Source: Escherichia coli (GTDB lineage: Bacteria; Pseudomonadota; Gammaproteobacteria; Enterobacterales; Enterobacteriaceae). From it: a DNA stretch of 64,000 bases. The position numbers and the translations under genes were made by a program. The notes under the pieces are model-generated. The model made no database searches. It saw nothing but the letters and a program-made list of their open reading frames with translations, and had not been told where the DNA came from. Location of the stretch: assembly GCF_030384885.1 (NCBI RefSeq), contig NZ_CP128613.1. One strand, written 5' to 3'. Shown piece after piece: positions 23,403 to 26,175 of the stretch. Position 1 is the stretch's first letter. The number at the start of each line of letters is the position of its first letter.

Positions 23403-25997
23403 ATGCATCACTCTGGTTCTGTTTCTCTTTGTCGTTCCGCAATATCTGTTCTGGTGGCTACAGCGTTATATTCTCCCATAGCATTGGCATCAACTGTTGA
23501 GTATGGAACGACTGTTGATGGTGTTGTCCTGGAAAAAGATATCCAGCTGGTTTATGGGACCGCAAATAATACGAAAATCACTCCCAGCGGAGAACAGCAT
23601 ATAAAAGAATGTGGTGTAAGTAATAATGCTGAAATCAACGGAGGGTATCAGTACATTGAAGCATATGGCTCAGCAGAATACTCAGTATTAAATGATGGTT
23701 ATCAAATTGTTCAATTGGGTGGTGCAGCAAACCAAACTACCCTCAATAATGGTGTGTTACAGGTTTATGGCGCAGCGAATGATCCCACGATTAAAGGCGG
23801 GCGCTTAATCGTTGAAACCGAAGGCATTGCCATCTTCGCCGTTATCGAAAAGGGAGGACTACTGGAGATTAAAGATGGCGGATTGGCATTTGCGGTAGAT
23901 CAAAAAGCAGGCGGTGCAATCAAAACAACCACGCGGGCCATGGAGGTATTCGGAACAAACCGTCTCGGTCAGTTTGATATCAAAGATGGGGTTGCTAACA
24001 ATATGCTGTTGGAAAACGGCGGAAGTTTGCGGGTTGAAGAGAATGACTTCGCTTATAATACCACTGTGGATAGTGGTGGTTTACTGGAGGTTATGGATGG
24101 CGGGACTGCAACTGGCGTTGACAAAAAAGCAGGCGGAAAATTAATTGTTTCAACGAATGCGCTGGAAGTGAGTGGTACAAACAGTAAAGGCCAATTTAGC
24201 ATAAAAGATGGCGTGTCTAAAAATTATGAACTGGATGATGGTTCCGGGCTAATTGTTATGGAGGGCACTCAGGCAATTGACACTATCCTTGATGAGCATG
24301 CAACCATGCAATCGTTGGGAAGAGATACTGGTACGAGAGTGCAGGCACATGCAGTTTATGATCTTGGTCGGTCAGTGCAGAATGGAAGCATAAAATATTC
24401 CTCAAATGCCATATCTGAAAATATGGTTATCGATAATGGTCGCGCTAATGTCTGGACTGGCACAATGGTTAACGTAACAGTCAGAGGAAATGAGGGCATT
24501 ATTGATGCAATGGCGCTGGAATTAAATTTTTATACACCGGCTACATTTTTAGGTGACGTGGTGGTTTCTGATGGTGCATCTTTAAGAACGCATGGCGCAG
24601 TGGATACCAGTAAAGCAGATGTTTCTATCGAAGAGAGTTTTTGGGCTATTATTGCCGATATCAATAATATAAACCAAAACACCCATCTCAATTTAGCAAA
24701 CCTGGTGATGTCAGACGGAACTGTCGTTATGATGGCTGAGCCAGCAACTCGCTCAACCGTGACGGCAAGTGCGGAAAATTTCACTACGTTGACCACTAAT
24801 ACCCTATCGGGAAACGGCAATTTTTATATGCGTACCGATATGGCTAATCATCAGAGCGATCAGCTCAACGTGACCGGTCAGGCAACAGGTGATTTCAAAA
24901 TATTTGTGACGGACACGGGGGCCAGCCCGGCAGCAGGTGATAGCCTTACACTGGTAACAACGGGCGGCGGTGATGCTGCATTTACCTTGGGCAATGCCGG
25001 AGGCGTTGTTGATATCGGTACGTATGAATATACCTTGCTGGATAATGGCAACCATAGCTGGAGTCTGGCAGAGAATCGCACGCAAATAACTCCTTCAACC
25101 ACTGATGTGTTGAATATGGCGGCAGCACAACCGCTGGTATTTGATGCAGAACTGGATACCGTACGTGAGCGTCTTGGTAGCGTAAAAGGCGTTAATTACG
25201 ATACGGCGATGTGGAGTTCGGCAATTAACACCCGCAACAACGTAACCACTGATGCGGGAGCTGGCTTTGAGCAAACATTGACGGGGCTGACGCTCGGTAT
25301 CGATAGCCGTTTCTCCCGTGAAGAAAGCAGCACAATTCGTGGCTTATTCTTTGGTTACTCTCATTCTGATATTGGTTTTGATCGCGGCGGTAAAGGTAAT
25401 ATCGATAGCTATACTCTGGGTGCTTATGCCGGTTGGGAGCATCAAAACGGTACCTATGTTGACGGGGTGGTGAAAGTTGACCGTTTTGCCAACACCATCC
25501 ATGGCAAGATGAGTAATGGGGCAACAGCGTTTGGCGATTACAATAGTAACGGCGCGGGTGCTCATGTCGAGAGCGGGTTCCGTTGGGGGGAGGGGCTGTG
25601 GAATGTAAGGCCTTATCTGTCCTTTACCGGCTTTACCACTGATGGTCAGGACTATACGTTATCAAATGGTATGCGTGCGGATGTGGGAAATACCCGCATA
25701 TTACGCGCTGAAGCGGGAACGGCGGTAAGCTATCACATGGACCTGCAAAACGGTACTACGCTGGAACCCTGGCTGAAAGCCGCCGTGCGTCAGGAATACG
25801 CCGATTCTAACCAAGTGAAAGTTAATGACGACGGCAAATTTAATAATGACGTGGCTGGAACCCGTGGCGTTTATCAGGCTGGGATAAGGTCATCGTTTAC
25901 CCCGACGTTAAGCGGTCATTTGTCAGTCAGCTATGGCAATGGCGCGGGGGTAGAATCACCGTGGAATACCCAGGCGGGTGTGGTCTGGACGTTCTGA
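23403..25997 (+). CDS. yejO: Autotransporter (AIDA-I-type, YejO family), apparently intact
   Basis: 864-aa ORF; N-terminal signal sequence; repetitive Gly/Asn-rich passenger with repeated GGLLE..DGG..VD.KAGG units; C-terminal barrel ending ...AGVVWTF. Confidence 0.85.
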   Translation: MHHSGSVSLCRSAISVLVATALYSPIALASTVEYGTTVDGVVLEKDIQLVYGTANNTKITPSGEQHIKECGVSNNAEINGGYQYIEAYGSAEYSVLNDGYQIVQLGGAANQTTLNNGVLQVYGAANDPTIKGGRLIVETEGIAIFAVIEKGGLLEIKDGGLAFAVDQKAGGAIKTTTRAMEVFGTNRLGQFDIKDGVANNMLLENGGSLRVEENDFAYNTTVDSGGLLEVMDGGTATGVDKKAGGKLIVSTNALEVSGTNSKGQFSIKDGVSKNYELDDGSGLIVMEGTQAIDTILDEHATMQSLGRDTGTRVQAHAVYDLGRSVQNGSIKYSSNAISENMVIDNGRANVWTGTMVNVTVRGNEGIIDAMALELNFYTPATFLGDVVVSDGASLRTHGAVDTSKADVSIEESFWAIIADINNINQNTHLNLANLVMSDGTVVMMAEPATRSTVTASAENFTTLTTNTLSGNGNFYMRTDMANHQSDQLNVTGQATGDFKIFVTDTGASPAAGDSLTLVTTGGGDAAFTLGNAGGVVDIGTYEYTLLDNGNHSWSLAENRTQITPSTTDVLNMAAAQPLVFDAELDTVRERLGSVKGVNYDTAMWSSAINTRNNVTTDAGAGFEQTLTGLTLGIDSRFSREESSTIRGLFFGYSHSDIGFDRGGKGNIDSYTLGAYAGWEHQNGTYVDGVVKVDRFANTIHGKMSNGATAFGDYNSNGAGAHVESGFRWGEGLWNVRPYLSFTGFTTDGQDYTLSNGMRADVGNTRILRAEAGTAVSYHMDLQNGTTLEPWLKAAVRQEYADSNQVKVNDDGKFNNDVAGTRGVYQAGIRSSFTPTLSGHLSVSYGNGAGVESPWNTQAGVVWTF

Positions 25998-26062
25998 TAA
26001 CAGAAAATAAACAGGTCGTAATGTGTCGCGGTCTGTTTATCAAATTAATCGCAGATATAAAA

Positions 26063-26097
26063 AAACCAACCGCAATAGGTTGGTTTTCTTGGGATTT
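26063..26097. terminator. Hairpin terminator between yejO and proL, plausibly bidirectional
   Basis: aaaaaaaCCAACCgcaataGGTTGGttttctt; A-run on one side, T-run on the other. Confidence 0.6.
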
Positions 26098-26098
26098 T

Positions 26099-26175
26099 TG
26101 GTCGGCACGAGAGGATTTGAACCTCCGACCCCCGACACCCCATGACGGTGCGCTACCAGGCTGCGCTACGTGCCG
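26099..26175 (-). tRNA. proL: tRNA-Pro
   Basis: Minus strand reads CGGCACGTAGCGCAGCCTGGTAGCGCACCGTCATGGGGTGTCGGGGGTCGGAGGTTCAAATCCTCTCGTGCCGACCA with 3' CCA; GGG anticodon read by eye in the loop; synteny with yejM. Confidence 0.9.

Follow-up and report, generated by a model that had tools for sequence, protein, structure and literature searches.

The window analyzed here, a 64,000-nt stretch of Escherichia coli DNA, carries a full-length copy of the known E. coli gene yejO. We read the gene, with a probability of about 85%, as a classical (type Va) AIDA-I/Ag43-like autotransporter gene that is a resident of the Escherichia chromosome. It is ordinary except that it encodes a rare version of the fast-evolving outer part of the protein. 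The gene and its family are already on record, as are the IS5 disruption in K-12 and the truncated forms in uropathogenic strains, and the rare passenger-segment allele is the one mildly new point. Beyond that, the analysis adds the finding that the undisrupted gene is the norm, the delimitation of a hypervariable module with its allele classes and a variable 74-aa repeat, and the relation between proL and yejO. The gene encodes a widespread orphan autotransporter, and its importance is small beyond bookkeeping.

Identity and locus of yejO

The yejO coding sequence (23403..25997, + strand) starts with ATG, encodes 864 aa plus a stop and ends ...VVWTF*. The RefSeq product is 'autotransporter YejO' (WP_000546506.1) and the K-12 locus tag is b2190, in agreement with the first-pass annotation, which had proposed from the letters alone an 864-aa open reading frame with a WTF end and had named it yejO. 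The gene is flanked by narP on one side and by the tRNA-Pro(GGG) gene proL (26099-26175, - strand) on the other, and the order narP-yejO-proL-yejM is constant in E. coli genomes. The 4-kb region differs from E. coli 2013C-4282 by one mismatch, and yejO itself differs from the gene of that strain (also WP_000546506.1) by a single third-codon-position change, ACT for ACG, both encoding Thr. The encoded protein is 91% identical at the amino acid level to the common allele (cluster P0014, 16,859 member sequences). Antisense open reading frames of 73-99 aa inside yejO found no support and are regarded as chance.

Protein architecture

Residues 1-30 (23403..23492, +) form a putative Sec signal peptide, recognized by eye: the n-region is charged (R11) and is followed by a hydrophobic core and an ALA|S site, with cleavage probably after ALA (MHHSGSVSLCRSAISVLVATALYSPIALA|S). 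The AF2 model leaves aa 1-27 disordered and begins a beta-helix at aa 28. The passenger that follows (23493..24737, +, aa 31-445) was delimited by profile HMMs, AF2 and Foldseek, and contains AIDA-type strand-loop-strand repeats. Pfam AIDA (PF16168) matches YejO in two stretches (E 4e-51) and TIGR04415 in three (E 1.6e-19, 69.7 bits versus a cut-off of 30); by both profiles the passenger contains the imperfect strand-loop-strand repeat of about 19 aa that defines AIDA-I-type autotransporters. AF2 models the passenger entirely as short beta-strands, with pLDDT mostly above 90 for aa 30-445, and the best Foldseek matches to this model are Ag43 structures (7KOH, 7KO9 and 4KH3, E 1e-20 to 1e-17), with TibA and pertactin also matched. 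The model thus predicts with high confidence that the passenger is a right-handed beta-helix nearest to that of Antigen 43. The passenger had been described as Gly/Asn-rich, which the composition bears out (Gly 12.3%, Asn 7.4%).

Within the passenger lie two tandem units of 74 aa (222 nt; 23853..24296, +, aa 151-224 and 225-298) that share 53% amino acid identity, 39 of 74 residues in a protein self-comparison. The corresponding direct repeat, at 23853 and 24075, has a 222-nt spacing and 73% nucleotide identity over 62 nt. Tandem Repeats Finder reported no repeats in 23000-26300, because at 73% identity the units are too diverged in DNA. The unit occurs in one or two copies across alleles, and the proteins of clusters P0016, P0022, P0099 and P0120 are shorter here by exactly 74 aa. 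The tandem units of about 80 aa proposed by the first-pass annotation are therefore real as a passenger repeat, with a period of 74 aa rather than about 80 and only two copies.

A pertactin-type domain (24696..25070, +, aa 432-556; PF03212, E 5.6e-45) matches P.69 pertactin (1DAB) and is likely the autochaperone region. The linker after it (25083..25208, +, aa 561-602) falls within the match to TIGR01414 (aa 457-864, covering 2-432 of 432, E 2.7e-110) and also in the alignment with the BrkA translocator 3QQ2 (aa 583-864), and would be expected to form an alpha-helix that plugs the barrel pore. The last part of the protein (25209..25994, +, aa 603-864) is assigned as the C-terminal outer-membrane beta-barrel translocator and carries the aromatic end signal WTF. 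The autotransporter beta-domain PF03797 matches aa 603-842 (1-254 of 255, E 1e-44, 153 bits versus a cut-off of 26), and the BrkA translocator 3QQ2 aligns to aa 583-864 (3-284 of 284, E 3e-18). AF2 left aa 506-864 unfolded, with pLDDT below 30 and a shallow alignment of 14 sequences, so the barrel assignment rests on the HMM and sequence evidence, by which YejO has a full-length C-terminal autotransporter barrel with an aromatic end. The autotransporter barrel and pertactin domains anticipated from the open reading frame were thus both matched in the profile search, at E 1e-44 to 1e-110. The arrangement is that of type Va autotransporters, a beta-helical passenger and a pertactin-like domain directly before the linker (PF03212, AF2 and Foldseek). 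A SPATE-type protease or toxin was also considered and dismissed, as a peptidase domain was unmatched in the profile searches.

Relationship to characterized autotransporters

The closest known system is Antigen 43 (Flu/Agn43), which YejO resembles in its AIDA-type repeats, beta-helical passenger, pertactin/autochaperone domain and 12-strand barrel architecture. Ag43 is the best match in both sequence (7KOH, E 5e-34) and fold (Foldseek E 1e-20, about 25% identity). YejO is shorter (864 versus about 1,040 aa) and scores far below the NCBIfam equivalog cut-off for Ag43/Cah (127 versus 1200 bits), as it does for the AIDA-I model (66 versus 1200 bits) and the BafA equivalog (211 versus 700 bits). 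Judged by these scores, YejO is a distinct member of the family and not an orthologue of any characterized adhesin. It shares with AIDA-I and TibA strand-loop-strand repeats of the heptosyltransferase-target type (TIGR04415), and TibA (4Q1Q) matches aa 54-207. AIDA-I and TibA differ in that no heptosyltransferase gene of the aah/tibC type is adjacent to yejO, whose neighbors are narP and proL.

From knowledge of type Va systems, the Sec system would export the YejO precursor and remove the signal peptide of roughly 30 aa, and the C-terminal barrel would be placed in the outer membrane by the BAM complex. Threaded out C-terminus first, the passenger would then fold outside the cell, starting at the pertactin/autochaperone domain, and stand on the cell surface as a beta-helical stalk of about 500 residues. 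By analogy with Ag43, AIDA-I and TibA, we put at about even odds the idea that this stalk is an adhesin that binds to itself or to surfaces and promotes aggregation or biofilm formation. No experiments on YejO function were found in the searchable literature, as expected from the earlier remark that the function is essentially uncharacterized.

A rare allele of a hypervariable passenger segment

The part of the passenger at 24273..24767 (+, aa ~291-455) is a sharply delimited hypervariable segment, and the window carries a rare allele class of it, present in 18 of 5,426 genomes, with the remainder at 80-90% identity. Strain EC96, in which the common allele is uninterrupted, served in place of K-12 as the reference for per-window identity and dN/dS. 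The segment shows 77-85% nucleotide identity (about 83%) to the common allele with no intermediates, and E. coli has at least three discrete allele classes of it. Divergence from the common allele amounts to dN 0.135 and dS 0.58 (dN/dS 0.23). The flanking genes, in comparison, have a dS of 0.07-0.15, and their dN is exceeded by that of the segment about 50-fold or more. The rare-allele status of the segment is absent from the first-pass annotation.

One tentative explanation, which we consider possible though well short of probable, is that the rare segment allele entered by recombination as a block from another, divergent lineage of Escherichia, or else represents a balanced polymorphism of long standing. 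It would be kept because this surface-exposed stretch forms the face of YejO that binds ligands or acts as an antigen, where host immunity or phages would encounter it. The dS of 0.58, the lack of intermediates, the existence of three or more classes and the 74-aa repeat in one or two copies all favor such an import or balanced polymorphism. If this reading is correct, each discrete allele class would stand for a functionally distinct specificity as adhesin or receptor, a proposal already made for the classes of Ag43. As a donor, E. albertii is ruled out, since its segment is only 47-59% identical to that of the window.

Conservation of yejO in E. coli

A full-length yejO locus is found in about 79% of 5,426 complete E. 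coli genomes. The first-pass annotation had regarded the intact copy as notable because the K-12 gene is disrupted by IS5. The K-12 gene is indeed split by IS5 near its start, both in the RefSeq annotation and in the literature (PMC11005336; PMC11677980), whereas the window copy is uninterrupted and carries the rare segment allele; the non-K-12 background deduced from this was correct. As a distinguishing mark, intactness did not hold up: the undisrupted gene is the usual state in E. coli.

In comparisons both with the common allele of E. coli and with E. albertii, the dN/dS of yejO as a whole is 0.18, with values of 0.05 for the barrel and 0.07 for the pertactin domain, and purifying selection acts on the gene overall. 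Because undisrupted yejO is usual and under purifying selection, the protein probably works at the cell surface, unnoticed in research on K-12.

Composition and the proL integration site

The base composition of yejO is atypical for its surroundings. Its GC content is 0.471 and its GC3 0.428, against means of 0.540 and 0.602 for 27 neighboring genes (z -2.8 and -5.0; GC3 standard deviation among the neighbors 0.035), and its synonymous-codon score lies at z -3.8. The narP-yejO spacer has a GC content of 0.355. The impression that the gene and its upstream region are AT-rich was therefore accurate. The earlier reading had named a missing barrel, or a neighbor-like composition together with an intact K-12 gene, as findings that would speak against it; neither was observed.

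The proL gene (26099..26175, -; anticodon GGG, Rfam tRNA 54.9 bits) directly adjoins yejO, with its 3' end at 26099 facing the yejO stop at 25997. The first-pass annotation had taken this adjacency as a landmark of horizontal acquisition. The adjacency to the proL 3' end and the atypical composition are both real, and the integrase and att repeat of such a landmark are missing: yejO is the sole gene between narP and proL, where no integrase or mobility gene was found, and there is no att-like copy of the proL 3' end in 22400-26400 or anywhere else in the window. The case for horizontal transfer of yejO thus rests on composition and geometry.

The gene occupies the same locus throughout the species and in E. 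albertii, where the order is ccmH-narP-yejO. A contig scan with peptide words specific to the allele of the window gave matches in E. albertii only, and the 120 entries listed in a search for YejM homologues were all near-identical E. coli sequences. On plasmids, yejO was not found apart from a 94-nt fragment. Other elements do integrate at proL. A prophage remnant lies there in S. flexneri 1c (PMC4924310), SPI-12 is located there in Salmonella (PMC7143636), and in strain 100117 proL holds an 11-kb integrase-bearing element that is bordered, toward yejO, by a degenerate copy of the 3' end of the tRNA. Elements inserted at proL separate the tRNA from yejO and leave yejO outside, and the yejO losses observed are internal deletions, not clean excisions. 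We conclude that proL is a live integration site and that yejO is its fixed neighbor, not its cargo. Since E. albertii has the gene in the same place, integrase and att repeat are missing and mobile elements enter on the tRNA side of yejO, the gene, if acquired at all, was acquired long ago; the low GC content and the position at the proL 3' end fit an ancient acquisition that predates the split of E. coli and E. albertii.

Alternative explanations

A different account of the locus would have yejO carried by a genomic island at proL that arrived recently and may still be mobile. Its low GC, low GC3 and atypical codon usage invite this comparison, and so does its place beside the 3' end of a tRNA gene with proven use as an att site (PMC4924310; SPI-12 at proL), a setting it shares with the tRNA-linked islands exemplified by SPI-12 in Salmonella and by phage satellites at proL in E. 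coli. Unlike those islands, however, yejO is a single gene without integrase or direct repeats, in a narP-proL interval that lacks any mobility gene or tRNA 3'-end repeat, and practically all E. coli, as well as E. albertii, have it in this same position. In strain 100117, moreover, yejO is the host-side flank, since both the integrated element and the att repeat are found on the tRNA side of the gene. These observations largely refute a recent mobile island, which we regard as highly improbable, and yejO is not a currently mobile island. Set against a resident, working gene is also the idea that yejO is dead weight, a silenced and decaying gene that by chance is still unbroken in the lineage of the window. 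The gene has been inactivated independently by IS5 in K-12, by IS1203 in an O157 strain and by an IS3-family element, and strain 382634_2f retains a 923-nt frameshifted remnant. A large deletion that removes the passenger segment occurs in about 21% of genomes, published reports describe yejO as being truncated throughout UPEC and absent from ST131, and in K-12 it is among the least-expressed genes (PMC10392735). Such repeated inactivation means that yejO is dispensable in many lineages. Decay is nevertheless an unlikely description of the gene, as the low dN/dS overall and in the barrel, out to E. albertii, indicates long-term purifying selection, and the reading frame is full length in the rare allele, the common allele and E. 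albertii.

The remaining alternative accepts a working surface protein and assigns it another role, in which the passenger binds a host factor (for example in complement evasion, like Bordetella Vag8/BrkA) or serves mainly as a variable antigen or phage receptor, and is not a self-associating adhesin. Consistent with this, among solved chains Vag8 gives the longest match in sequence (7AKV, aa 272-861, E 1e-32), the barrel matches BrkA, and the hypervariable segment has its several allele classes and an elevated dN relative to the flanking genes. The likeness to Vag8 and BrkA, however, lies mostly in the pertactin-plus-barrel translocation unit that is common to the whole family, and the N-terminal passenger, whether judged by sequence or by fold, is nearest to Ag43 and TibA. 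The dN/dS of the hypervariable segment is also not above 1. We therefore consider this role rather improbable for YejO.

Upstream region and expression

The divergent intergenic region between narP and yejO (23085..23402) is AT-rich and presumably holds the yejO promoter and 5' UTR. A sigma-70 promoter scan of the spacer gave no convincing consensus match and fewer sites than shuffled sequence. An Ag43-type phase switch was considered as well and rejected: the spacer contains no GATC site, so the Dam/OxyR switch of agn43 is absent from yejO, and the 5' part of the gene has no long homopolymer. Given the K-12 expression report, laboratory expression of yejO is probably low, possibly through H-NS silencing of the AT-rich 5' region. 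Downstream, in the gap that separates the yejO stop codon from the 3' end of proL, an inverted repeat forms a hairpin (AAAAAAACCAACC-GCAATA-GGTTGGTTTTCTT, 26059..26091) that could plausibly act as a bidirectional terminator.

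The 864-codon ORF is yejO, an AIDA-I type autotransporter gene

The ORF at 23403-25997 (+) spans 864 codons from an ATG start to a C-terminal end of ...VVWTF*, and its length, together with HMM matches at E-values of 1e-44 to 1e-110, places it beyond chance. We searched a 4-kb query (22400-26400) by megablast against 5,426 complete E. coli genomes. The best match, with one mismatch, was strain 2013C-4282, in which the ORF is annotated as yejO ('autotransporter YejO', WP_000546506.1) between narP and tRNA-Pro/yejM. Over 32 kb, the window and this record differ by four substitutions and one indel; the sole difference in yejO, at 25757, is an ACT/ACG change at a third codon position, so the two proteins are identical. 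Elsewhere, the window has an extra G at 16468 in ccmA (15938-16561), giving an uninterrupted 207-aa translation, and RefSeq lists ccmA of 2013C-4282 as a frameshifted pseudogene; this mismatch reflects either an assembly error in the 2013C-4282 record or the origin of the window from a sister isolate.

The first-pass annotation had read a C-terminal barrel ending in WTF from the sequence, and profile searches bear this out: Pfam matches an autotransporter beta-domain at aa 603-842 (254/255 profile positions, E 1e-44), a pertactin domain at aa 432-556 (E 6e-45) and AIDA repeats (E 4e-51), and NCBIfam matches TIGR01414 at aa 457-864 (E 2.7e-110) and the TIGR04415 strand-loop-strand repeat. Solved chains matched by the sequence are those of Ag43, Vag8, TibA, pertactin and the BrkA translocator. 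With an alignment of 14 homologues as input, AlphaFold2 models aa 30-445 as an all-beta solenoid with pLDDT above 90, nearest by Foldseek to Ag43 crystal structures (E 1e-20 to 1e-17, ~25% identity); aa 506-864 were not folded, a failure attributable to the shallow alignment. Because its equivalog scores fall far under the NCBIfam cut-offs, YejO is not an orthologue of Ag43, AIDA-I or BafA. The ORF is yejO itself, a classical autotransporter of the AIDA-I type, and the feature is already known.

Tandem units of about 80 aa had been placed in the passenger at around 23850-24260. The tandem repeat is there, with a different period and extent: two 74-aa (222-nt) units at 23853-24296 share 39 of 74 residues, with 73% identity over their best 62 nt. 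TRF did not detect this repeat, and a 111-nt sub-period is also visible among short repeat families in a repeat search. Some database alleles, found in both of the major classes, are one complete 74-aa unit shorter (protein clusters P0016, P0022, P0099 and P0120); the repeat is genuine and recombinogenic.

Full-length yejO is the rule in E. coli

IS5 does disrupt yejO in K-12, as the first-pass annotation stated: MG1655 is annotated with two pseudogene pieces flanking an IS5 transposase gene, and the disruption is likewise stated in PMC11005336 and PMC11677980. The intact copy fits the suggested non-K-12 background but does not set this genome apart, since about 79% of the genomes carry a full-length locus, as judged by nucleotide coverage and segment presence rather than reading frame, making K-12 the exception. 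In 4,279 genomes, coverage of the 4-kb query reaches 80% or more, and the passenger segment is present in 4,293. Further insertions include IS1203 in an O157:H7 genome and an IS3-family element. The passenger segment is absent from ~21% of genomes, one of which retains only a 923-nt frameshifted remnant. This agrees with the reported absence of YejO from ST131 (PMC5654935) and with a passage in PMC3426408, citing Wells et al. (2010), that describes YejO as truncated in all uropathogenic genomes.

The window carries a rare and divergent passenger allele

Compared with the common allele, represented by strain EC96, yejO has an overall dN of 0.045, dS of 0.255 and dN/dS of 0.18. Values are lower in the barrel (0.012, 0.21 and 0.05, respectively) and pertactin domain (0.008, 0.116 and 0.07) and higher in the hypervariable segment at aa 291-455 (0.135, 0.58 and 0.23); in the flanking genes dN is at most 0.0024 and dS is 0.07-0.15. 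The gradient is alike in comparison with E. albertii, where the hypervariable segment is only 39% identical at the amino-acid level. Both comparisons indicate a gene that is constrained, not decaying, with a very fast-evolving exposed part.

Across a 601-nt stretch of the passenger (24200-24800), 18 of 5,426 genomes match the window at 98% identity or higher and ~4,250 at 80-90%, with the range between 90% and 98% essentially empty. Protein clusters hold 72 member sequences for the window allele and 16,859 for the common allele, and there are at least three discrete hypervariable classes in E. coli. The high dS and discrete classes point away from recent positive selection and towards recombinational import or a long-standing polymorphism. 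The segment comparison rules out E. albertii as donor. Over 19400-31400, identity of the flank to EC96 is 95-100% except at 22200-22399, in the ccmH-narP spacer, where it dips to 88%.

yejO is the host-side neighbour of a busy attachment site

The suggestion that yejO is AT-rich held up well. Its GC of 0.471 and GC3 of 0.428 compare with means of 0.540 (sd 0.025) and 0.602 (sd 0.035) in 27 neighbouring genes (z of -2.8 and -5.0), and its synonymous-codon choice is atypical (z of -3.8). The low GC is concentrated where the gene encodes the predicted signal peptide and the N-terminal passenger, with GC3 values of 0.27-0.37; GC in the narP-yejO spacer is 0.355. Most of this spacer is occupied by an 88-aa ATG ORF (23116-23382, +), absent from the RefSeq annotation and probably spurious.

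Adjacency to a tRNA gene, also proposed, is confirmed: the sole tRNA that ARAGORN finds across the 64 kb, in agreement with Rfam, is tRNA-Pro(GGG) proL (26099-26175, -), whose 3' end faces the ORF end across 101 bases. Islands usually sit past the 3' end of a tRNA gene, and the position of yejO is consistent with this geometry. The hint of horizontal acquisition is thus supported by composition and geometry and not by the other hallmarks: ORF calls and the RefSeq annotation of the locus show no integrase or mobility gene with yejO, and a repeat search revealed no duplicate of the tRNA 3' end upstream of yejO or elsewhere in the window. The position is also fixed, with yejO at the same locus throughout E. 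coli and a 76%-identical orthologue after narP, in the same orientation, in E. albertii; if yejO was acquired, this predates the split of the two species.

Real mobile elements enter between proL and yejO, which makes yejO a host-side neighbour of the site. In E. coli strain 100117 (locus L006, 15720-27040), an 11-kb element lies between them. It carries genes for an integrase, a primase and Icd-like proteins, as well as for a small terminase, a major capsid protein and a head-decoration protein, and looks like a capsid-forming phage satellite. The tRNA is intact and adjoins the integrase gene, and its 3' end recurs as a degenerate copy on the side of yejO. In the E. albertii type strain NBRC 107761 (locus L005, 8590-14586), ProQ/FinO-family and DUF927 (primase-like) genes lie downstream of yejO, with no tRNA, tRNA-Pro or other, within 6 kb, which suggests that another element has taken the proL site. 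A gtrIC prophage remnant in S. flexneri 1c ends at tRNA-Pro and yejO (PMC4924310), and SPI-12 of Salmonella lies at proL (PMC7143636).

Possible function of YejO

By the well-established type Va pathway, the precursor would be exported by Sec and lose its signal peptide, and the 12-strand barrel would be inserted with the help of BAM. The passenger would then exit through or alongside the barrel, leaving the linker helix in the pore, and fold vectorially from a seed in the pertactin/autochaperone domain.

We found no functional study of YejO in the searchable literature, in keeping with the first-pass description of its function as essentially uncharacterised; published work treats the K-12 pseudogene as a neutral site for deletions. 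By analogy with Ag43, AIDA-I and TibA, YejO may be an adhesin, self-associating or surface-binding, with a role in promoting aggregation or biofilm, a reading we put at about 50%. Unlike Ag43, yejO has no counterpart of the Dam/OxyR switch, as there is no GATC site upstream. H-NS silencing through its AT-rich 5' region is plausible. One main alternative is that yejO is a silent, dispensable gene; the other is a host-factor-binding or antigenic surface protein. What gives the locus its remaining worth is the rare, discrete hypervariable allele, along with the finding that an E. coli surface protein so widespread and kept by selection is without an assigned function.

Other elements near the locus

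A near-perfect palindrome at 26228-26260, with 16-nt arms (TCGCTAACTGATTTAT and ATTAATCAGTTAGCGA) and a 1-nt loop, spans the yejM stop codon and, read along the minus strand, comes shortly before proL; its role may be to terminate yejM transcription or to regulate proL. In the convergent ccmH-narP spacer, Rfam matches the ES036 (CssrF) sRNA at 22318-22360 (+) below threshold, with 32.1 bits where the gathering score is 37.6 (E 0.0012).
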